Shown: piece after piece, positions 4,301 to 64,000 of the stretch
Layout: each line of letters begins with the position of its first letter
Numbering within the stretch: position 1 is the stretch's first letter
IMG/VR virus record: IMGVR_UViG_3300045988_089718
Span: 1 to 64,000 of that record
Origin: a virus
Length of the DNA stretch: 64,000 nucleotides
Reading direction: 5' to 3' (one strand)
Notes under the pieces: generated by a model
Database searches by the model: none
What the model was told of the DNA's origin: nothing
What the model saw: only the letters and a program-made list of their open reading frames with translations
Program-made: the position numbers and the translations under genes

Positions 4301-4373
4301 GGTCCTGTAGCTCAGTGTATAGAGCAGGAATCTTCTAAATTCCGGGTCGTGAGTTAGATTCTCGCCAGGACCA
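4301..4373 (+). tRNA. tRNA-Arg (anticodon TCT)
   Basis: Cloverleaf folded by hand: acceptor GGTCCTG/CAGGACC, D arm TAGCTCAGTGTATAGAGC, anticodon stem GGAAT/ATTCC with loop CTTCTAA, T loop GTTAGATTC. Confidence 0.85.
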
Positions 4374-4378
4374 CATAT

Positions 4379-4459
4379 ACGGAGTTCGCTTAATGGTTAG
4401 GGCACCTCACTTCCACAATTCATAGAGAGGGTATATTGGTTCGAATCCTTTACTCCGTA
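4379..4459 (+). tRNA. tRNA-like gene, non-canonical (about 18-nt loop in the anticodon region)
   Basis: Acceptor ACGGAGT/ACTCCGT pairs perfectly; D arm GCTT-AATGGTTA-GGGC; T loop TTCGAAT. The only stem in the anticodon region is CCTC/GAGG enclosing 18 nt. Architecture shared with 4890-4970. Confidence 0.5.
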
Positions 4460-4483
4460 CTAATATTAAAAAGATTGAGTAAT

Positions 4484-4834
4484 ATGAAAAAGATTATCTT
4501 ATTGATGAGTTTTATTGTATTAACTACAATAGCTCATGCGTTTAATTACGGTTCTATCACTATTTATCAAGATGGTGAATGGGGCAAGCCATTATATATT
4601 AAAACTTCAGTAGTATATAATAAGGCTAGAAAAACTATTACTTTTAGTAATAGTAAGTTTGGTAAAATGGTATTAAAAATATACTCTTCTGAAATGAAGG
4701 ATGGAGTAGAAATCCATAACTGTGGAGAGGTTAATACAGGGAGACGCTTTGTTGTCTTTATTACAGTGAGGAATAAAATTCCTTATGTGACTCTTAGTAC
4801 TTCCGCAGATACCATGTTTTCATTTGGCTTTTAA
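4484..4834 (+). CDS. secreted hypothetical protein (116 aa)
   Basis: Internal ATG giving signal-peptide-like MKKIILLMSFIVLTTIAHA. The 4436 start in the ORF track lies inside the preceding tRNA-like gene, so the later start is preferred. Confidence 0.5.
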   Translation: MKKIILLMSFIVLTTIAHAFNYGSITIYQDGEWGKPLYIKTSVVYNKARKTITFSNSKFGKMVLKIYSSEMKDGVEIHNCGEVNTGRRFVVFITVRNKIPYVTLSTSADTMFSFGF

Positions 4835-4889
4835 GTTTCCATAATAATGTGTTAACGTTTTACTAGTTTTCCGATATAAACTAGTACTT

Positions 4890-4970
4890 ACGGTAGTAGC
4901 TCAGTGGTTAGAACATCTCTTTATATAGGTCATTTCGAGATGGTCATTGGTTCGAATCCTTTCTACCGTA
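4890..4970 (+). tRNA. tRNA-like gene, non-canonical (about 17-nt loop in the anticodon region), paralog of 4379-4459
   Basis: Acceptor ACGGTAG/CTACCGT pairs perfectly; D arm GCTC-AGTGGTTA-GAAC; stem ATCTC/GAGAT encloses 17 nt; T arm ATTGG-TTCGAAT-CCTTT. Confidence 0.5.
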
Positions 4971-5214
4971 CAAATTCAATTTGATAGAGATGGAGGTGAG
5001 ATCTTCAATTATTAGATAGCTTGGCTAACTATCAATAGTTTCGTTTAAAATGCTCATTTATGTAGAATTTCTACAATCACCAGCCATGATTTGAGAAGAC
5101 CCTATCATTTTAATAGAATTTGATATATTGTTAATGTGTATAATAATCCTGACTAATAAATCTATTAGTATGGGTAGGTGTTACCACTATTCTCCTTACA
5201 GAAATGTGGGCTAT

Positions 5215-5287
5215 GGAGATATAGCTTAGAAGGTCAGAGCGCGGGACTGAAAATCCCGAGATTGTGGTTCGATTCCACGTGTCTCCA
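5215..5287 (+). tRNA. tRNA-Phe (anticodon GAA)
   Basis: Acceptor GGAGATA/TGTCTCC; anticodon stem CGGGA/TCCCG with loop CTGAAAA; T loop TTCGATT. Confidence 0.85.
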
Positions 5288-5291
5288 CTAT

Positions 5292-5381
5292 GTACGGATG
5301 CCTGAGTGGTCGAAAGGGTAGGTCTCCAAAACCTACAGAGACGAAAGTTGAACAACGTAGGTCCGAATCCTACTCCGTATG
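5292..5381 (+). tRNA. Type II (long variable arm) tRNA with apparent anticodon CCA
   Basis: Acceptor GTACGGA/TCCGTAT; 3-bp D stem; anticodon stem TAGGT/ACCTA with loop CTCCAAA; about 22-nt variable arm; T arm GTAGG-TCCGAAT-CCTAC (C at position 55). Confidence 0.6.
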
Positions 5382-5404
5382 CAAATAAATCAAATAAATA
5401 AAAT

Positions 5405-6019
5405 ATGGTAAATTGGGATAATGAAATTGAAAAGCTAAAAGACTATGTATTTACATAGAAACTTTCTTATGAAGAAATTGGTAGAATTTATAATTGTACT
5501 GGTGGCAACATAAAGAAAGTAATGCAGAGAAGAGGTATAGAATTACCTATTCGATCTAAAAATGCAGGAAAAGAACCTATTAATAAAGGTACTGGCAAAA
5601 AATGTTATTGTTTAAACTGTGGTAAAGATATTACAGATGCCAGAAATACTACCCATAAATATTGTTCTAATAAATGTCAACGTGAATATGAGTATAAACA
5701 ATGGGTTCAACAATATAAAGAAGATAACTCTATAGCTAAATCTACTAAATGGGGTTAGATACCTGGTCATTTAAGACATTATATATTTGATAAATTTGAT
5801 AACAAGTGTTGTATATGTGGTTGGTCAAAAATAAATCCCTACACAAATACAATTCCTTTAGAAATTGATCATATAGATGGAAATTCAGAAAATAACTCAG
5901 AAGATAACTTAAGATTAATATGTCCTAACTGTCATTCTCTAACCTCTACTTATAGAGGAGCTAATAGAGGTCAAGGAAGAAATATTACTTGGATTATTAA
6001 AGATAAATCTGCCCTCTAA
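5405..6019 (+). CDS. HNH homing-endonuclease-like protein; reading frame contains two in-frame TAG codons (5456-5458 and 5756-5758); either TAG-recoded or a pseudogene
   Basis: Single frame from ATG 5405: MVNWDNEIEKLKDYVFT-TAG-KLSYEEIGRIYNCTGGNIKKVMQRRGIELP...KSTKWG-TAG-IPGHLRHYIFDKFDNKCCICGWSKINP...EIDHIDGNSENNSEDNLRLICPNCH. The classic HNH motif (CxxC...HID..N...N...CxxCH) lies entirely downstream of the second TAG. Confidence 0.6.
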
Positions 6020-6133
6020 GCTTTAAGGTGAAGCACGAAACTTTTAATTTCGGGAAGACAGGTCAGTACTGTCAGGGGGTACTCCACATCTATTTTCGTT
6101 TTAGTCAAAATTTAAAATTAGACAAAAATCAAA

Positions 6134-6162
6134 GATTCTTGGTCTGCGATAGATAGAGAATC
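6134..6162 (+). repeat. Hairpin family member A3: stem GATTC/GAATC around loop TTGGTCTGCGATAGATAGA
   Basis: Conserved loop, covarying stem; lies just 5' of tRNA-Glu. Confidence 0.65.
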
Positions 6163-6167
6163 TACTT

Positions 6168-6240
6168 GGCACTATCGTCTACCTGGTTAGGACGCCACTC
6201 TTTCAAGGTGGAAAAACGATTTCGAGCATCGTTAGTGCTA
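6168..6240 (+). tRNA. tRNA-Glu (anticodon TTC)
   Basis: Acceptor GGCACTA/TAGTGCT; anticodon stem CCACT/GGTGG with loop CTTTCAA. Confidence 0.8.
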
Positions 6241-6316
6241 CCCTTTAAATAAAACTAATACGATTAATGTTTAAGATATAAAGTCAGCGGACTTTATAAC
6301 GTTAAAGAGTTGTTAG

Positions 6317-6342
6317 GCTTCTTGTCTGTGAAGATAGGAAGC
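6317..6342 (+). repeat. Hairpin family member A4: stem GCTTC/GAAGC around loop TTGTCTGTGAAGATAGG
   Basis: Conserved loop, covarying stem; just 5' of tRNA-Ser. Confidence 0.65.
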
Positions 6343-6348
6343 TTTATT

Positions 6349-6436
6349 GGAGAAATGACTGAGCGGTCGAAAGTGGCACCCTGCTAAGGTGTTAGTCATG
6401 TTATGTGGCTCGAAGGTTCGAATCCTTCTTTCTCCG
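6349..6436 (+). tRNA. tRNA-Ser (anticodon GCT), type II
   Basis: Acceptor GGAGAAA/TTTCTCC; anticodon stem GCACC/GGTGT with loop CTGCTAA; long variable arm; T arm AAGG-TTCGAAT-CCTT. Confidence 0.85.
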
Positions 6437-6442
6437 CTATAT

Positions 6443-6513
6443 TGGGTTATGGTGTAATGGTAGCACTACAGATTTTGGTTCTGTCAGCTCCAGTTCGAAT
6501 CTGGGTAGCCCAA
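6443..6513 (+). tRNA. tRNA-Gln (anticodon TTG)
   Basis: Acceptor TGGGTTA/TAGCCCA; D arm GTGT-AATGGTA-GCAC; anticodon stem ACAGA/TCTGT with loop TTTTGGT; T arm TCCAG-TTCGAAT-CTGGG. Confidence 0.75.
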
Positions 6514-6520
6514 CAACTTA

Positions 6521-6598
6521 CAGGTGACTTACGGTGTGGGAACCGTTATCTATTAAAGATATATAGCCCATGGGCATTAGCCTAAGGAGTTCGAATCT
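6521..6598 (+). tRNA. tRNA-like fragment (T arm GGAG-TTCGAAT-CTCT and D-arm-like ACGG-TGTGGGAA-CCGT; no pairing acceptor found)
   Basis: tRNA-like local elements but no consistent cloverleaf by hand; needs tRNAscan/Infernal. Confidence 0.25.
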
Positions 6599-6796
6599 CT
6601 AAGCCTGACAATTTTAATAGGTACTAAACAACTCTCAGTAACTCTATTAAATAGCGTAATTACCTTAAAATTAATCATTTGAGTTAAAAAGAGAAAGAAC
6701 GTTAGATAGCTGAGGACAATGGAATAGTTTAAATATAACCAGTGAAAATCGCCTATTATTTAAATAGATTATTAACACATTAATTATAGATAAATT

Positions 6797-7186
6797 ATGA
6801 CAAGACAAGATTATTTTGTTAGAAAAACCAATTTAATAGCACAAATAGAAAGTGCTAAGAAGTTTGGTTGTAAAAATGTACTTAAGTGTGCTAAATTAGA
6901 TTTAGCCAAGCTTGAAGAAAAGTACAAAAAAGAACATCTTTCTAATCCTCTGTTCAGTTACATGGTAACTGATGAAGAAATGGATGAGCTTATTAGAAAT
7001 GATGAAAAGCCTACATTTAAAATTAAAGTAACTTTCAAAAGTGGTGAAGCTTATGATTTAATGTTTTACCATGAACTTAAAAGTGGAGTTAAACATTCTG
7101 ATGTTGTGAAATGGGCGATGAAAGGGTTAATTAAAACTATCTATCATCCTGAAAATATTGTAGATGCTCGTTTTATTATGGGTTAA
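6797..7186 (+). CDS. hypothetical protein (129 aa)
   Basis: ORF embedded in the tRNA cluster. Confidence 0.5.
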   Translation: MTRQDYFVRKTNLIAQIESAKKFGCKNVLKCAKLDLAKLEEKYKKEHLSNPLFSYMVTDEEMDELIRNDEKPTFKIKVTFKSGEAYDLMFYHELKSGVKHSDVVKWAMKGLIKTIYHPENIVDARFIMG

Positions 7187-7191
7187 GAGAT

Positions 7192-7551
7192 ATGGAAATA
7201 AAAACAATACAAATTGATTCTGATACATTTTTAGTGTTTAAGGGACGAGAGTACAGACAGATAAACATAGAAGACATTGTATGTTTAAAAACATCTGGTA
7301 AATATAGTACTATAATAGATGTTCATGGCTATAAAATTGATGTGTGTTGTTCATTAAAAGAAATTACACATGTTTTATGTATTGATTTTATTCTTGCAAC
7401 ACAAGGATTTTTGATAAATCATAAATACATATCTGAGATAATTAGAAAGAATGATGAAAATAATACATATATCTTAAAATTAAATGATGATATTCATACA
7501 ACTGTGGATATTTCACTACATATAGCTACAAACATGTTAAAACAATTGTAA
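7192..7551 (+). CDS. hypothetical protein (119 aa)
   Basis: ORF embedded in the tRNA cluster. Confidence 0.5.
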   Translation: MEIKTIQIDSDTFLVFKGREYRQINIEDIVCLKTSGKYSTIIDVHGYKIDVCCSLKEITHVLCIDFILATQGFLINHKYISEIIRKNDENNTYILKLNDDIHTTVDISLHIATNMLKQL

Positions 7552-7590
7552 TACCATAATAGTTTAAGGTTTATAAAATAAATATTGTTG

Positions 7591-7613
7591 GCAACTAGCA
7601 GATAATTAGTTGC
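7591..7613 (+). repeat. Palindrome GCAACTA-GCAGATAAT-TAGTTGC upstream of tRNA-Leu; copy 2 of the 4274 element
   Basis: Near-identical roughly 30-nt block with the same position relative to a tRNA start. Confidence 0.6.
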
Positions 7614-7618
7614 TATCT

Positions 7619-7704
7619 GGCTCAGTGGTGGAATTGGTAGACACGAGGGACTTAAAATCCCTTGACCAGGAATGGTCGTGCAAGTTCGATTCTTGTCTGA
7701 GCTA
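7619..7704 (+). tRNA. tRNA-Leu (anticodon TAA), type II
   Basis: D loop TGGTGGAATTGGTAGACAC typical of tRNA-Leu; anticodon stem AGGGA/TCCCT with loop CTTAAAA; acceptor GGCTCAG/CTGAGCT (G1-U72). Confidence 0.85.
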
Positions 7705-7719
7705 CAATAATAAACTAAC

Positions 7720-20655: not shown

Positions 20656-20794
20656 GCATGAATAACAATGACTTAGGAATCTTAGAAACCATTACTCACT
20701 CAATCCTCAAAGATGTAAAAAGTTTAGATCCTGATATATCTCAACTAGTAGATAAATACTTTTGGTATTTAGTATAAAACTTAAAAAGAATAAT

Positions 20795-21094
20795 ATGATA
20801 TTTTACAGATTTGATGAAATTCCAGAGGATGAATGTTCATCTATATGGAATAATAGTAATGAAGTAATAGGTAAAGAAAAAGGTGTGTCTGTTTATGAAG
20901 CTCATAAAAATATAAATGGAACATACTCTCCCGTTCTTCCATTTCCAACAAATGAAAAAGCATTTAATGGTTTTATATATCATGTAGCATACTTTACTGG
21001 CAATAAATATCTAGTAACCGGTGATTTGTTAGATGAAACCGGTACTGATGGTGAGCCATTAATTAAAAATGTAAAAATATTAAAAAAATTATAG
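20795..21094 (+). CDS. hypothetical protein (99 aa; internal ATG start preferred)
   Basis: The 20762 start in the ORF track overlaps the upstream small ORF; MIFYRFDEIPEDE start at 20795. Confidence 0.45.
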   Translation: MIFYRFDEIPEDECSSIWNNSNEVIGKEKGVSVYEAHKNINGTYSPVLPFPTNEKAFNGFIYHVAYFTGNKYLVTGDLLDETGTDGEPLIKNVKILKKL

Positions 21095-21097
21095 TTT

Positions 21098-21484
21098 ATG
21101 GATATAAAAGATATTAAATTTAAGGCTAAACGTCTTGATACTGGAGAATGGGTAAAGGGGGACTTGGTACATAGTACAAGTTATATTGGTATATGTATAT
21201 ATCATCCAAATAACATATTTCCTGATGTTCCAGTAGTACGCAAGGTTGACCCGGATACAGTTTGTATGTTCACAGGATTAAAAAACAAGGAAGGTAATGA
21301 AATATACGAACATGATTTTATCTCTATATTTAAAGGTAGAGAACTTTGTGAAGTAATCTTTGAAAAAGGATGCTTCCTAGCATTTAATCCTAGAACTCAT
21401 ATGCGTATGCCATTAATAACAGGTATTAATGACTATGCCTGGGAATTGCATGTAGTTGGAAACAAATTCGATAAAAAGAAATAA
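21098..21484 (+). CDS. hypothetical protein (128 aa)
   Basis: ORF. Confidence 0.5.
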   Translation: MDIKDIKFKAKRLDTGEWVKGDLVHSTSYIGICIYHPNNIFPDVPVVRKVDPDTVCMFTGLKNKEGNEIYEHDFISIFKGRELCEVIFEKGCFLAFNPRTHMRMPLITGINDYAWELHVVGNKFDKKK

Positions 21485-23896: not shown

Positions 23897-24025
23897 CATT
23901 AATTAATTTTTAAATTATGGATAAAGAATATAGAATAGATCCAGATGATTGGTATGATAATTACAATTATCTACGTGGTAGACACTAATTTATAAAAGAG
24001 TTCTAACTTAGGACTCTTTTAAATT

Positions 24026-24355
24026 GGGGATGTTTTGGTTTTGAACTTCGAGGAGATAAGGAACACAGCAAGACAGTTGGAGAGACAACAAAACAATAAT
24101 CGCTAGAGTTATTAATATGACTCCTGCTTATCAGGCTGCTGCCTGAGAAGCCGAGCAGCACTTGCTTAGGAACAGAAAGGTGCACTATTTTCCATTTCTT
24201 TTGTAAGTTCTCTGTATACTTTAGGAACAGAGTGGTGGAAGTTGGCAATGTTAATCTTGTCAACCCTAATAGACAAGGATAGTCTCTAAAACCTATGCTG
24301 TAAGAATGTTTTGATGCAAATCGGAGTGACAGGGGTTCGACTCCCCTCATCTCCA
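24026..24355 (+). ncRNA. ssrA: tmRNA-like gene (about 330 nt)
   Basis: 5' GGGGATG pairs with 3' CATCTCC, giving a tRNA-Ala-like acceptor with G3:U70. 3' T arm GGGG-TTCGACT-CCCC. Locally GC-rich with no ORF (the minus ORF 24003-24356 is spurious). Candidate tag frame GCT AGA GTT ... TAT CAG GCT GCT GCC TGA (ARVINMTPAYQAAA). Confidence 0.6.
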
Positions 24356-24445
24356 CTAGTTCATAGAACTGTTTTTATTATTTGTTTTTAATCCCTGGGC
24401 TATTATTATAGTTCAGGGATTTTTGTTTAATTTTAACTGTTAATT

Positions 24446-28255: not shown

Positions 28256-29152
28256 ATGGAATACTTAGATTTTAGAAATCTTGTTACAGAAGCATGTAAT
28301 AAGATGATTAAAGAGAACAAACATCTCTTTATTCTTGACACCCAAAAAGAGTTTTTATGGATGGCTTATATGGAATCTTTTCCTGAAGGAGCCGTACGTC
28401 AGGAATTTAACTGTGTAAATTGTAAACATTTCATTACTCGCTATGGAGCATTAGTCTCTATAGATGAGAATTATAAAATACATTCTTACTGGGAGGATGT
28501 TCATGCTGAAGGAATGTTTGTTAAAGTTGTAGACAATATGTTACAAGTGCTCAAAAATACTAAAATTAGAAATGCATTTGTAACAGAAGAGACTACAATG
28601 GGTTGTAAATGTAATCAGCAGATACTACCTTCTAAAGAAATAATTACTTGGAACCATTTTTATGCTACTCCTACAAGTAATTTAATTATGGATAAGTCTC
28701 AAACTCCAACATTCCGTGCAGGTGCTAAATCTTCACATGATGTATGGTTAAGAACTTTATCTGAACTTAACTATAATTCTGTACAAACAGTATTAGACTT
28801 AATTGCAGATGATAATCTTTACAGAGGTGATACTTATTTACGTCAAGTAAGTGCCTTAAAGACTGCTTTTGATACGATAGAAAGCAAGCATTTGGAAGGT
28901 TTTGAGGTAGATAATTATGCTTGGGTATCTTCTTGTATACTTCCTGATGCTGTAACACATATACTTAATAGTGCTATAGGTCAGCTTCTTAAAGATATAA
29001 CTGATACTAATAACGTTGAAAGTTCAGTTAAGAAGTTTGAAGCTATGGTTGCTCCTTATAATTATAAGAGACCTAAGGGTATCATCACCAAAACTCAGGT
29101 AGAAAATGCTTATAAAACTGTAGTAGAACTTGGCTATGAAGATTCTTTATAG
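28256..29152 (+). CDS. hypothetical protein (298 aa)
   Basis: Long ORF. Confidence 0.6.
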   Translation: MEYLDFRNLVTEACNKMIKENKHLFILDTQKEFLWMAYMESFPEGAVRQEFNCVNCKHFITRYGALVSIDENYKIHSYWEDVHAEGMFVKVVDNMLQVLKNTKIRNAFVTEETTMGCKCNQQILPSKEIITWNHFYATPTSNLIMDKSQTPTFRAGAKSSHDVWLRTLSELNYNSVQTVLDLIADDNLYRGDTYLRQVSALKTAFDTIESKHLEGFEVDNYAWVSSCILPDAVTHILNSAIGQLLKDITDTNNVESSVKKFEAMVAPYNYKRPKGIITKTQVENAYKTVVELGYEDSL

Positions 29153-29224: not shown

Positions 29225-30289
29225 ATGTCAGGAGGATTTGATTCTCTTATGAATGAAACTATTAATACTAGTAAAGTTGCTACAGATTTTGAGAAGACTG
29301 CTATCCCAACAACTATGGAAGAGTTCCTTAATAATATTGTTTCTAAGGCTAGTAAGCTTGAATTATTCTTTGACAATAAGTTAAATAATAATTTAGTAAC
29401 TCTTACTGCCCCAGTTAATAAGGAAGCTCCTTCTATGTTTAAGTGGACTAATGGTTTTGCTTGGGCATATAATGGTAATATCTCTGATGCTATTAAGCAG
29501 CGTGTCAAAGAAGTAGGAGGTAAAGTAGACGGCTATATGAGAATCTCTCTTCATTGGTATAATTACGATGATTTGGATTTACATATGGAAAGTCCTTATG
29601 GGCATATTTATTATAATAACAAGCGTAATTTGCTTGATGTGGATATGAATGTCTGTGGAGGTAATCCTTCCGCAGAACGTAGTAATCCTAAGAAATATTC
29701 TCGTAACGCTGTAGAAAATATTATTTTCTCAGGAATTCCTGTAGCAGGTACTTATAAAGTATTTGTTAACAACTATAGTAAAGTTGAGAATATTGATTTA
29801 GGATTTGAAGTAGAGGTAGAACTCAATGGAGTTATTCATACTTATACGTATGACAAAGATATCCCTTATAAAAGTAATGTTCCAGTATTAAACTTTACTT
29901 CTAATGGGCGTGAAGTTGTCTTTACTAAGGAATATTTAAATAGTACTACAGCCTCTAAAGAAATTTGGGGAGTAAAGACTCAAAACTTTGTTGAAATATC
30001 TGCTATATGCTTATCTCCAAATTACTGGGGAAATAATAAAGTAGGTGCTAAGCACTATTTCTTTATGCTGAAGGATTGTAAGAATCCAGATGCTGTTCGT
30101 GGATATTTTAATGAGTATCTTAAAGACGAACTCACTAAGAATCATAAAAGAGTATTTGAAGTATTAGCATCTAAAGCTTTAACTCCTTATAATGATAATC
30201 AGATGAGTGGTTTAGGATTTATAGCTACTTCTCGTAACCAAATTATGGTTAGAGTAGATTCAGGTAAAATTTATAAAGTAAACATTTAA
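29225..30289 (+). CDS. hypothetical protein (354 aa)
   Basis: Long ORF. Confidence 0.6.
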   Translation: MSGGFDSLMNETINTSKVATDFEKTAIPTTMEEFLNNIVSKASKLELFFDNKLNNNLVTLTAPVNKEAPSMFKWTNGFAWAYNGNISDAIKQRVKEVGGKVDGYMRISLHWYNYDDLDLHMESPYGHIYYNNKRNLLDVDMNVCGGNPSAERSNPKKYSRNAVENIIFSGIPVAGTYKVFVNNYSKVENIDLGFEVEVELNGVIHTYTYDKDIPYKSNVPVLNFTSNGREVVFTKEYLNSTTASKEIWGVKTQNFVEISAICLSPNYWGNNKVGAKHYFFMLKDCKNPDAVRGYFNEYLKDELTKNHKRVFEVLASKALTPYNDNQMSGLGFIATSRNQIMVRVDSGKIYKVNI

Positions 30290-31492: not shown

Positions 31493-31503
31493 TCAGGACT
31501 TTC

Positions 31504-31576
31504 GCCTCGGTAGTTCAGTGGTTAGAACGCGAAACTGTTAATTTCGATGTCGGGAGTTCGAATCTCTCCTAGACAA
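31504..31576 (+). tRNA. tRNA-Asn-like (anticodon GTT) with non-complementary acceptor stem
   Basis: D arm, anticodon arm (CGAAA-CTGTTAA-TTTCG) and T arm align closely to bacterial tRNA-Asn, but the 5' acceptor GCCTCGG does not pair with the 3' CTAGACA. Confidence 0.5.
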
Positions 31577-31598
31577 CTAATTAATAAAAATAAATAAT

Positions 31599-32075
31599 AT
31601 GAAAGAGACTTTTAATTATCAATCAGATGCAAACTTTTATGATAAAAAGGATTTTATTATAGCAGTCTTAAAAAGAAAAATAAATAGTTTTAAAGAGTAT
31701 GATGCTGAAAGAAAAAAGCATTATGCTGGACTAGAACAAAAAATTGGAGAATTAGAATCTTATATAGATGAATTAGAGAATGGACTTGGTATAGAATCTT
31801 TAAATAATAAAATTCAATCTTTAGAAAATAAAATTGAAAAACAAAAACTTAAAATTAAAGAATTGCAAGCTAAAGTTAATATATCTTTGTTTGATGATAC
31901 TAAGTCTTTTGAAGAATTAGAATCTATAGCAAATAATTTAAAGAACTTTAATAGTATAAGATTAGCTAATAAAGGTCTTAGAAAACAGCTTAAGGATAAT
32001 AAAAATACTATATCTGATTTAATCTATAAATTAACACAAGCTAAACTTAAAATAAAACAATTAACTGGAGAGTAA
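31599..32075 (+). CDS. hypothetical coiled-coil protein (158 aa)
   Basis: ORF. Confidence 0.5.
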   Translation: MKETFNYQSDANFYDKKDFIIAVLKRKINSFKEYDAERKKHYAGLEQKIGELESYIDELENGLGIESLNNKIQSLENKIEKQKLKIKELQAKVNISLFDDTKSFEELESIANNLKNFNSIRLANKGLRKQLKDNKNTISDLIYKLTQAKLKIKQLTGE

Positions 32076-32085
32076 TCTCCAATTT

Positions 32086-32160
32086 GGGCTCGTAGTTCAG
32101 TTGGCTAGAACGCTACTTCTGCAAGGTAGATGTCGTGGGTTCGAGTCCCACCGTGGTCCA
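32086..32160 (+). tRNA. tRNA-Ala-like (anticodon TGC) with imperfect acceptor stem
   Basis: D arm TAGTTCAGTTGGCTAGAAC; anticodon stem CTACT/GGTAG with loop TCTGCAA (C at position 33); T arm GTGGG-TTCGAGT-CCCAC. Acceptor GGGCTCG with 3' GTGGTCC gives G1-C, G2-C, G3-U and then mismatches. Confidence 0.5.
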
Positions 32161-32178
32161 CTATTAAATTAAATATTT

Positions 32179-32517
32179 ATGAAAATAATTATTGATACAG
32201 ACAATTTAGAAACATTAAAGTATAAAACTGAAGATGTTCCTATTTTAATAAAGACTTTCCAACAATTAATAAATAAATTAATGTATGAAGTAATAGGAAA
32301 TTATTATTCTGTAGACGATGTTCCTGAGGATGCTCCAAAATGGGTAAAAGAAGAACTACTTAATGTAGGAAAAACCTGTTACGTGGATGGATATATGAAT
32401 AAAGAATATGTTTTTAAAGGTATTCAAGAAACATTTGAGGATTATTATTATATATTAGAAAATAATAATAAACAAATTTCTTATTCTTCATGCGTTGGAA
32501 AGATATCTTATAAATAA
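32179..32517 (+). CDS. hypothetical protein (112 aa)
   Basis: ORF. Confidence 0.5.
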   Translation: MKIIIDTDNLETLKYKTEDVPILIKTFQQLINKLMYEVIGNYYSVDDVPEDAPKWVKEELLNVGKTCYVDGYMNKEYVFKGIQETFEDYYYILENNNKQISYSSCVGKISYK

Positions 32518-32519
32518 AT

Positions 32520-32597
32520 GCGAGATTAGTGTAGCTGAAGGCGCATATCTGGCTTCCAACCAGAAGGCTTGCGTGGGTTTGATTCCCACATCTCGCA
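32520..32597 (+). tRNA. tRNA-Gly (anticodon TCC)
   Basis: Acceptor GCGAGAT/ATCTCGC; anticodon stem TCTGG/CCAGA with loop CTTCCAA; T arm GTGGG-TTTGATT-CCCAC. Confidence 0.85.
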
Positions 32598-33028
32598 CTA
32601 TAACAAAGCTCTAGAATACTAGTCACAGGAGCAACGTAACTTATAGGGTGCCTCTCAACGATGCATACTCGCCTATTAGGTGTCGTAGAACCTACGAACT
32701 GGAATGGTTCGACGTTTTTTGCATTCCTACAGAATCCTAAATAATAAAAACAGAGACCATAAGATTGTCTCTGACAGGGGCGATTTACCTGGGATTCTTA
32801 ATTTTTTAAATTCTCCTCCTAGATACTTTATAAGTTAAACTTTAAATTTGATTTATTATGATGAAAATTTTAAAAAGAACTTTAAAAGCCATTAAGAAGG
32901 GTTGGACTTGGTATGCTAATCAGTATTGTAGATTATACATGCCTCCAATGATTTAATCTTATTATTTAATTTGTAAGTACCAAAGGGGTACTTACTGATG
33001 TTGAGTCGGGCAATAAGCTCGACTTTTT

Positions 33029-62999: not shown

Positions 63000-64000
63000 C
63001 ATAGGTTTCCTTGGAAATCTTTTCTAAAATATGTATACTTAAGTGTTAATAATTAATACTTAAGCTATGCATCAATTTAATCACAATTATTTTAAAACTA
63101 TTGATACAGAAGAAAAAGCTTATATCCTTGGTTTTCTGTATGCTGATGGCTATAACTCTGATAAGCAAGTAGTTATAGCCCAATTAGAACAAGATGTTGA
63201 TATTTTAGAAAAGATAAATAAAGCACTAGATGCAGATAATCAAATAAAAAGAAAATTACAGAGTACAAATAATAAAACTGTATGTCAATTATACTATAGT
63301 AGTATAGATATGTGTGCAGACTTAACTAATCTTGGATGTTTTAGAAATAAATCTTTAGCATGTACTTTTCCAACATTTCTAGATAAATCTCTAATTCGAC
63401 ATTTCATTAGAGGTTATTTTGATGGTGATGGATGTGTTTGGATAGGTAAAAGAAAAATAATGACTGTTAAAGATAAGACGAGACCAAGTGGATTTCGGGA
63501 GCGCATAGTTCAAAATGTTAAATTTACAATAACTGGTAATATGACATTTATTAATAGTTTACAAGATGAGTTAGTACAAATGTTGGGATTTAAGAAAACT
63601 AAACTTAATTTTAGCAAGGCTAAAAATGCTAATAATAGCACTTGTGATAAAGTTTGTACTATGGAGTATTCTGGCAGAAAACAGATGCAATCTTTTTATA
63701 ATTATATGTATGAAGGAGCTTCTATTTGGGGAAATAGAAAAAAATTAAAATTTGAAGAAATTTGTGCGTTTGAAGAGAAATCTTCAAAGGACACCTAGTT
63801 AATTGCTGGAACGCCTGAGATGGTAATCAGCAGCCAAGCCTCTAATATTGAGGAAGGTTCATCGACTATCCCTGAAATGGGAGTAGAATCAAGTGATTCG
63901 AAATGCTAGGCTCTTAACGACACGCAAGTGGGCGAAGATGAAGATATAGTCAGTTCTGTAGTTAAATGAAGCTACAGCGATAAAATTGGGACTAGAGTAA
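63000..64000 (+). mobile_element. Probable group I intron carrying a LAGLIDADG homing endonuclease, inserted in the metallophosphoesterase gene (3' boundary beyond the window)
   Basis: Gene interrupted at a catalytic motif; the intervening ORF is a homing endonuclease; 63799-64000 is non-coding, locally GC-rich and hairpin-rich. Confidence 0.55.
63067..63798 (+). CDS. LAGLIDADG homing endonuclease (two-motif, 243 aa)
   Basis: Motif 1 ILGFLYADGY and motif 2 IRGYFDGDGCVW. Confidence 0.8.
   Translation: MHQFNHNYFKTIDTEEKAYILGFLYADGYNSDKQVVIAQLEQDVDILEKINKALDADNQIKRKLQSTNNKTVCQLYYSSIDMCADLTNLGCFRNKSLACTFPTFLDKSLIRHFIRGYFDGDGCVWIGKRKIMTVKDKTRPSGFRERIVQNVKFTITGNMTFINSLQDELVQMLGFKKTKLNFSKAKNANNSTCDKVCTMEYSGRKQMQSFYNYMYEGASIWGNRKKLKFEEICAFEEKSSKDT

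Follow-up and report, generated by a model that had tools for sequence, protein, structure and literature searches.

A complete one-piece tmRNA gene with a host-type acceptor stem in a large phage, probably of gut Bacteroidales

We analysed 64,000 nucleotides (nt) of viral DNA, positions 1 to 64,000 of IMG/VR record IMGVR_UViG_3300045988_089718 (the window), and located a transfer-messenger RNA (tmRNA, ssrA) gene at 24026-24355 on the plus strand. The gene is 330 nt long from G1 to the discriminator A and was delimited with ARAGORN, Rfam family RF00023 and 32 distinct homologues. Judging from the sequence, this segment is very probably a functional one-piece tmRNA of a large, lytic-type phage of gut Bacteroidales. 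A preliminary description of the window had proposed a full-length, phage-encoded tmRNA and named ARAGORN and Rfam models as the check. Both detectors were positive.

ARAGORN called a standard, non-permuted tmRNA at 24026-24356 with the tag ARVINMTPAYQAAA before the stop. RF00023 matched 24026-24358 with 65.5 bits (E 2.7e-23; gathering score 47 bits), and the match covered model positions 1-374 of 374. The landmarks of the preliminary description were found in place: GGGGATG opens the gene (24026-24032), the T arm reads AGGGG-TTCGACT-CCCCT (24331-24347), and CATCTCC (24348-24354) is followed by the discriminator A at 24355. The segment had also been called GC-richer and free of open reading frames (ORFs). 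The first statement is correct: G+C is 42.1% in the segment, about 27% in the flanks and 30.1% in the window overall. The second holds for the plus strand, where no ORF of at least 50 amino acids (aa) is present; the minus strand carries an antisense ORF of 117 aa (24003-24356). This ORF, which appears in the mechanical ORF list, raises the alternative that the segment is a minus-strand protein gene and that the RNA signal is coincidental. However, the ORF is disrupted in relatives (the longest antisense stop-free stretch is 50-87 aa in 31 of them), the variation tracks RNA pairing rather than codons, and all surrounding genes lie on the plus strand. We regard a protein gene here as extremely improbable.

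The homologues were gathered by pattern scans, using the gene ends and two invariant internal segments, in IMG/VR and human-gut metagenomes. The scans yielded 32 distinct full-length homologues and two intron-interrupted genes. The contigs are 94-225 kb long and all come from human-gut phage, so the huge-phage setting suggested earlier was roughly right. The lineage includes the 181-225 kb contigs IMGVR_UViG_3300045988_076685 and ENA OPLR01000001. The bodies of the family are 82-98% identical to the window gene; the contig of L250 provides a more distant homologue, with 74% identity. Over 30 independent viral contigs, obtained from different samples, carry the same gene in the same context. 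In GenBank, the closest record is MT835492.1 (about 91% identity), a 121.6-kb contig from human faeces that is titled 'Bacteriophage sp.' and has no annotation; it was the only match when 50,697 phage records were searched with blastn. We aligned 31 family sequences (alignment A2) and obtained an RNAalifold consensus of 73 pairs. The acceptor stem was checked by anchoring both ends, as MAFFT staggered the 5' ends. As a control, the 3' partners were slid by 1-3 columns. In the alignment, 99.1% of the cells of the consensus pairs were paired, compared with 38-44% in the slid controls, and 13 pairs were changed on both sides, compared with 0-2 in the controls.

The tRNA-like domain is complete and consists of a 7-bp acceptor stem with G3:U70, a discriminator A, a 5-bp T stem and a 7-nt loop of the TPsiC type. 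The 5' strand of the acceptor stem, GGGGAUG (24026-24032), pairs with CAUCUCC (24348-24354) in seven standard pairs, as the preliminary description had it, with G3 opposite U70. All 32 family sequences keep the seven pairs, G3:U70 and the discriminator A, and positions 5-7 of the stem occur in three fully compensated versions. The T arm (24331-24347; nt 306-310/318-322 of the RNA) has the stem AGGGG/CCCCU and the loop UUCGACU (24336-24342), and four of its five stem pairs are changed on both sides across the family. The acceptor strand is followed by the D-loop analogue UUUUGGUUUUGA (24033-24044), which by analogy would be the elbow region bound by SmpB; the two together form a 19-mer found at the 5' ends of Bacteroidales tmRNAs.

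The domain is joined to a long P2 helix of 22 pairs (P2a-d; 98-100% paired). The 5' strand of P2a (nt 20-26, 24045-24051) pairs with nt 296-302 (24321-24327); five of these seven pairs are changed on both sides, and all cells are paired. The RNAalifold consensus places the 5' strands of P2b-d at nt 35-49 (24060-24074) and their partners at nt 283-287, 271-276 and 257-260 (24308-24312, 24296-24301 and 24282-24285). One of the five pairs in P2b (nt 35-39/283-287) is compensated, from A:U to G:C in three sequences, and the rest of P2b-d is invariant. At the usual position of pseudoknot 1 (PK1) there is a hairpin, GUUG-GAGAGA-CAAC (24076-24089). Relatives have ACUUG-GAUAGA-CAAGU, a compensated extension of the same hairpin (4-5 bp overall). 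Helix 5 (nt 96-111/116-130, 24121-24155) surrounds the 3' part of the tag and the stop codon; it has 13 pairs, three of them changed on both sides, and 97.8% of its cells are paired. The body at the position of PK2 to PK4 (nt 128-256, 24153-24281) contains conserved RNAalifold stems at nt 133-138/153-158, 182-189/197-203, 216-222/233-239 and 240-242/251-253, which are 98-100% paired. Rfam posterior probabilities are low across this part. A near-repeat was also seen inside the body, UUAGGAACAGAAAGGUG at 24166-24182 (nt 141-157) and UUAGGAACAGAGUGGUG at 24221-24237 (nt 196-212), and may be a duplicated pseudoknot module.

The tag frame extends from the resume codon GCU at 24102 through 14 codons (ARVINMTPAYQAAA) to UGA at 24144-24146, which lies in the 3' strand of helix 5. 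The preliminary description had suggested that a frame ending in YQAAA-TGA could encode the tag. ARAGORN and the Rfam alignment both set the resume codon at 24102, and in the latter the consensus resume GCa falls on this GCU. As is usual in one-piece tmRNAs, where the resume codon is mostly one for Ala or Gly, the frame opens without a start codon or Shine-Dalgarno site. The codon is preceded by the frame-setting sequence U(-5)A(-4)AUC (24097-24101), of which U(-5)A(-4) is retained in all three upstream versions in the family. These two nucleotides correspond to U85/A86 of E. coli, the frame determinant, in which A86 sets the frame four nucleotides downstream (PMC2481249). The family has five tags, ARVINMTPAYQAAA, ARVINMTPVSYAIAA, ARVINMTPATAVAIAA, GEVNNTSASYAIAA and GEVNNTSVSYAIAA. 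All are in frame, all end in Ala-Ala, the stop is TGA or TAA, and the length is 14-16 aa. Furthermore, indels inside the tag frame are of 3 or 6 nt only, while those outside are of 1, 2 or 4 nt. A second frame put forward at the outset, ARQLERQQNNNR-TAG, was rejected as the tag: it is located in P2 (5' strand) and in the hairpin at the PK1 position, where relatives have indels of 1 and 2 nt.

The gene is flanked by conserved elements on both sides. The 3' trailer (24359-24421, plus strand), identified by a terminator scan and conserved downstream of the gene in relatives, consists of the hairpin GTTC-ATA-GAAC with a T run (24359-24377), a strong intrinsic terminator with a 14-pair stem (24390-24421) and then TTTTG. 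The terminator scan gave 2 sites, with 0.4 expected. On the other side, a hairpin of 12 pairs, AAAAGAGUUCUA-ACU-UAGGACUCUUUU (23994-24020, plus strand), ends 5 nt before G1; it is present in most relatives, and its loop varies. A mini-ORF of 23 codons, MDKEYRIDPDDWYDNYNYLRGRH (23917-23988), lies upstream of this hairpin, and both are conserved in most relatives. The hairpin may be the terminator of the mini-ORF or a structure of the 5' leader.

Every property of one-piece tmRNAs that could be tested is present in the window gene. The order in the DNA is 5' acceptor strand, tag, T arm and 3' acceptor strand, which is not that of a two-piece (permuted) tmRNA (RF04321 and related). Neither is this a mini-tmRNA with only a tRNA-like domain, of the DS6A type, as the RNA is 330 nt long and has a conserved tag frame.

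We compared the gene with the tmRNAs of Bacteroidales. These are likewise in one piece and begin with the same 19 nt (GGGGAUGUUUUGGUUUUGA). The acceptor stem GGGGAUG/CAUCUCC, including G3:U70, is the same, the upstream region is also A-rich, and the tag ends in Ala-Ala as well. The 5' 19-mer (GGGGATGTTTTGGTTTTGA) is the exact 5' end of the tmRNA in at least 120 genomes among the matches listed, almost all of them gut or rumen Bacteroidales (Muribaculaceae, Prevotellaceae, Rikenellaceae, Cryptobacteroides and others). However, the T stem is GGCGG/CCGCC in Bacteroidales and AGGGG/CCCCU in the phage, and the tag has 9 aa in Bacteroidales (GNNNYALAA, GNNSYALAA or GENNYALAA) and 14 in the phage. 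Beyond the 19-mer, blastn found no similarity between the phage gene and Bacteroidales tmRNAs. Given this and the differences in length, tag and T stem, the gene is neither a recent copy of a host gene nor a 3' fragment of one. The phage gene combines an acceptor stem and D-loop analogue of the host type with a body that is shorter and specific to the phage.

The comparison with host tmRNA had been named earlier as the way to tell an attP-like fragment from a full gene, and it pointed to a full gene, with homology not confined to the 3' part of a host ssrA. A remnant of this kind would be the 3' fragment of a host ssrA carried by a temperate phage that integrates into the tmRNA gene. The 3' 24-mer of the window gene, GGGGTTCGACTCCCCTCATCTCCA, does occur alone in many viral contigs, often at contig ends; many of the 60 viral contigs with this 24-mer hold unrelated tmRNAs or bare 3' ends at contig edges, and the latter look like integration remnants. 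In addition, 30 of 67 loci, mostly matches to the 3' 24-mer, had no ARAGORN tmRNA call, although a few of these are family members that ARAGORN misses. At the window locus, by contrast, the 5' acceptor strand, P2, resume codon, tag, helix 5, T arm and terminator are all present and the RF00023 match runs from 1 to 374. BLAST detects no similarity of the body to Bacteroidales tmRNAs, a search of about 105 window ORFs gave no integrase family, and over 30 related phage contigs carry the gene at this same position. The chance that the window gene is such a remnant is negligible.

The identity of the 5' 19-mer with Bacteroidales tmRNA also bears on whether the segment is bacterial DNA, brought in by host contamination or chimeric assembly. 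This is again most improbable. The body is unrelated to Bacteroidales tmRNAs and 60-80 nt shorter, the flanks consist of phage-type genes of 27% G+C, and the recurrence of gene and context in independent viral contigs noted above argues against an assembly artefact.

In trans-translation, tmRNA works together with SmpB. None of the window ORFs of at least 70 aa matched the SmpB family. Four SmpB queries (E. coli, T. thermophilus, Lak-A and Lak-B) were run with phmmer against the window and the complete MT835492.1, with no match in either (best E 0.07-0.5). A scan of viral contigs with an alignment of E. coli and T. thermophilus SmpB was swamped by enterobacterial prophage ends and uninformative on the family; the E. 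coli sequence of this alignment was confirmed as 100% identical by its matches. No SmpB was found adjoining the ssrA loci of Bacteroidales. Some huge phages also encode SmpB (PMC7162821), unlike the window, where none was found; a homologue is present in 15 of 15 records of Prevotella Lak megaphages, with 35-38% identity to E. coli SmpB (for example, MK250025.1 115640-116065 and MK250016.1 507047-507478). The host-identical acceptor stem and D-loop analogue suggest that the window RNA likely depends on the SmpB of the host.

The same observations can be read in another way, in which the RNA is a decoy or inhibitor that titrates host SmpB or alanyl-tRNA synthetase (AlaRS) and shuts down host trans-translation. 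Its tRNA-like domain copies the acceptor stem and D-loop analogue of the host, no phage SmpB was found in the window and MT835492.1, and such a role has been proposed for the RNA of mycobacteriophage DS6A, which consists of the tRNA-like domain only (PMC4131195). However, a decoy needs no conserved resume context, no restriction of tag indels to 3 and 6 nt and no compensated helix 5 at the stop, and we consider this role very unlikely.

Several points weigh against a functional one-piece tmRNA of a Bacteroidales phage. First, the PK1 is apparently a plain hairpin, and no second stem was found at its position. Second, PK2 to PK4 are without confirmation by covariation because the body is nearly invariant. 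For the same reason, an all-against-all screen for helices and covariation, aimed at pseudoknots, was too noisy, and only nested stems are reported here. In E. coli tmRNA, pseudoknots are replaceable by unrelated structures (PMC2481249). Third, CCA is not encoded. The 3' end of the gene reads A-CTA, and therefore CCA would be added post-transcriptionally. The trinucleotide after the discriminator is CTA, CCA, CCG, CTT, CTG or GGA in the family; an encoded CCA is not required for membership in the tmRNAs. Fourth, the phage RNA of 330 nt is about 65 nt shorter than Bacteroidales tmRNAs (390-409 nt). Fifth, the tag ends in QAAA and not in the host-type ALAA, and its recognition by proteases is uncertain. 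In addition, the absence of SmpB covers only a composite of about 140 kb (the window and MT835492.1) and not a complete genome. Finally, the host was assigned from two observations only, the identical tRNA-like domain and a 300-bp stretch in common with Prevotella Lak phages. This stretch (20795-21092) is 90% identical to the Lak-A and Lak-C megaphages and 76% identical to Lak-B; the remainder of the 10-kb query had no match to Lak phages.

The RNA has all the features for alanylation identity, a P2 scaffold, frame setting and tag templating, and these features are under selection. If it functions as a tmRNA, a precursor would be transcribed with a 5' leader and would end at the downstream terminator. 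RNase P and 3' trimming would free the RNA, and a CCA-adding enzyme would finish its 3' end. Host AlaRS would then charge it with alanine by way of G3:U70 and the discriminator A, and host SmpB and EF-Tu would bring it to ribosomes stalled on broken or non-stop mRNAs. Translation would resume on the GCU at 24102 in the frame set by U(-5)A(-4). ARVINMTPAYQAAA would be appended to the stalled chain, and termination at UGA would release and recycle the ribosome. Products carrying the long, Ala-Ala-ended tag are probably still destined for proteolysis. The phage would likely gain extra capacity for ribosome rescue during infection, when ribosomes stall through host mRNA decay and RNA-cleaving defences. 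A benefit of the rescue type has been suggested for other phages (PMC7162821; PMC9004378).

The tag itself suggests a different emphasis, in which a full tmRNA serves mainly for re-tagging and not for bulk rescue. A phage-specific tag could change the fate of stalled products, through slower or faster degradation or through recognition by a phage or host adaptor. The five family tags have 14-16 aa, and those of Bacteroidales with the same 5' 19-mer have 9; the window tag ends in QAAA instead of ALAA; and the N-terminal halves of the tags (ARVINMTP, GEVNNTS) are conserved within the family. However, all tags keep Ala-Ala and most of them Y-A-I-A-A, close to the YALAA of the host, which suggests the usual protease route, and no adaptor candidate was identified. 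We hold such re-tagging to be possible but rather unlikely.

The relatives of the window gene vary in a distinctive manner. Three versions of the tRNA-like domain (types A, B and C) and five versions of the tag occur on a body that is about 90% identical. Type A, which includes the window gene, has the acceptor stem GGGGAUG/CAUCUCC and the T arm AGGGG-UUCGACU-CCCCU; one type A sequence has GAGGG-UUCGAAU-CCCUC instead. ARAGORN detected three of the seven type A genes, and the Rfam score is 65.5 bits in the window. Type B has GGGGCAU/AUGCUCC and UGGAG-UUCGACU-CUCCA, with the 5' end GGGGCATTCGTGGTTTTGA. ARAGORN detected all 11 type B genes, and the Rfam score (44.2 bits in L092) is below the threshold; one sequence has the T loop UUCAACU. 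Type C has GGGGCUA/UAGCUCC and GACGG-GGCAGUA-CCGUC. Its acceptor stem is fully compensated, its D-loop analogue is altered and its T loop is non-canonical; ARAGORN detected none of the 14 genes, and Rfam gave no hit at E <= 0.001 (L001). The type C members are L001 (3986-4318 in MT835492.1), L072, L074, L077, L079, L085, L089, L093, L122, L252, L255, L257, L260 and L261. Within IMG/VR and the metagenome collection, the 5' 20-mer of type C (GGGGCTAAACTAGTATTTGA) was found only in this phage family.

Three further relatives carry insertions or replacements. A group I intron interrupts the T loop after GTT in L094 (Rfam 85.9 bits) and in L070 (87.3 bits). The insertion in L094 (9861-10742) is about 880 nt long, and the 3' exon CGACTCTCCAATGCTCCA resumes at 10743; a 209-aa ORF on its opposite strand (10044-10673) has a Cys-rich N terminus and a weak zf-FCS match. 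The insertion in L070 is at about 397-648. In L064 (about 7050-7200, minus strand), a GC-richer stretch of about 150 nt with no Rfam match takes the place of the 21-nt linker that follows GAAAGGUG. Rfam still calls L064 a tmRNA (65.1 bits).

Four of the five tag versions each occur with two or three domain types, and therefore the parts have been shuffled. These combinations indicate recombination between gene modules. The family might even be a modular tmRNA, with one conserved body and interchangeable cassettes for the tRNA-like domain (A, B, C) and the tag, a reading that we find unlikely. Under it, exchange could be driven by the mobile group I intron and endonuclease that target the T loop, by co-conversion of the flanking exons. 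The type C T loop (GGCAGUA), which the detectors miss, would then be a functional allele immune to the intron. Another possibility is that the cassettes follow the SmpB and AlaRS of the various Bacteroidales hosts, with the window gene as the host-mimicking type A.

We next compared the window gene with other phage tmRNAs, which are already documented; the window gene adds another example. They have been known since the Bxz1 group of mycobacteriophages and Bacillus phage G (PMC4131195), have been reported in huge phages by Al-Shayeb et al. 2020 (PMC7162821), and occur at a frequency of about 2.3% (402 of 18,146 sequenced phage genomes; PMC9004378). The tmRNAs of phage G, the Bxz1 group and huge phages are likewise complete and located among tRNA and translation-related genes, but blastn detected no sequence relationship between them and the window gene. 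At 308 nt, the tmRNA of phage G is similarly short, and its tag, AKLNITNNELQVA, is long and unlike host tags (PMC12484599). Melnitz-type marine phages also encode a tmRNA, which has been proposed to help in maintaining the hijacked translation machinery (PMC9004378). Their tmRNA is circularly permuted and, in Melnitz, under a glutamine riboswitch, whereas the window gene is in one piece. Bacterial tmRNA genes with a group I intron in the T loop have been described, according to the citation of Williams 2002 in PMC13011429, and nearly all of those known lie in chromosomes of Bacillota (PMC13011429) rather than in phages. Relatives L094 and L070 resemble these bacterial genes in having such an intron, and the window gene has none.

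The genes around the tmRNA are those of a phage. Nearly all window ORFs are on the plus strand and use the standard genetic code, under which 81 ORFs of at least 100 aa cover 48.3 kb. Recoding of TAG or TGA, as in Lak phages, was considered and rejected, since long ORFs gain less than 3.1 kb when either codon is read as sense. The gene products include two helicases, a DnaB-like helicase, a Sak4 annealing protein, a primase and exonucleases. They also include the anaerobic ribonucleotide reductase NrdD, NAMPT, a phosphoribosyl pyrophosphate (PRPP) synthetase, an AAA ATPase, an SPFH/flotillin protein, RNase H, thioredoxin and a macro domain protein. The Lak-like stretch is spanned by an ORF of 110 aa (20762-21094) with no Pfam family, and the next ORF downstream (21098-21484) is YopX-like. 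ORFs 28256-29152 and 29225-30289 match the N-terminal (2-300) and C-terminal (331-671) profile halves of phrog_1735 (function unknown), and look like a split gene or a gene interrupted by about 70 nt.

Besides the tmRNA, the RNA genes of the window comprise at least 13 tRNAs and one group I intron. The tRNA genes form two clusters (4301-11674 and 31503-32598). The tRNA at 4890-4971 has a 2-nt 'anticodon' according to ARAGORN and scores 42.6 bits with the Rfam tRNA model, and an extra tRNA at 4379-4459 was called by Rfam and not by ARAGORN. The group I intron (63744-63971; Rfam 71.6 bits) lies at the window end and overlaps the end of ORF 63067-63798, which has LAGLIDADG endonuclease matches.

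The window gene itself is ordinary, and its shuffled and non-canonical relatives are unusual. Phage tmRNAs are under-counted, as ARAGORN missed 18 of the 32 family sequences and Rfam left the two other versions of the tRNA-like domain below threshold or unmatched. The family provides a natural variant series for the needs of the tRNA-like domain, the pseudoknots and the tag, with three acceptor and T-arm versions, five tags, a reduced PK1, T-loop introns and a 150-nt body replacement. For this uncultured lineage of human-gut phages of about 100-225 kb, the result adds a host-mimicking tmRNA to the translation toolkit, and the tmRNA points to Bacteroidales as the host.

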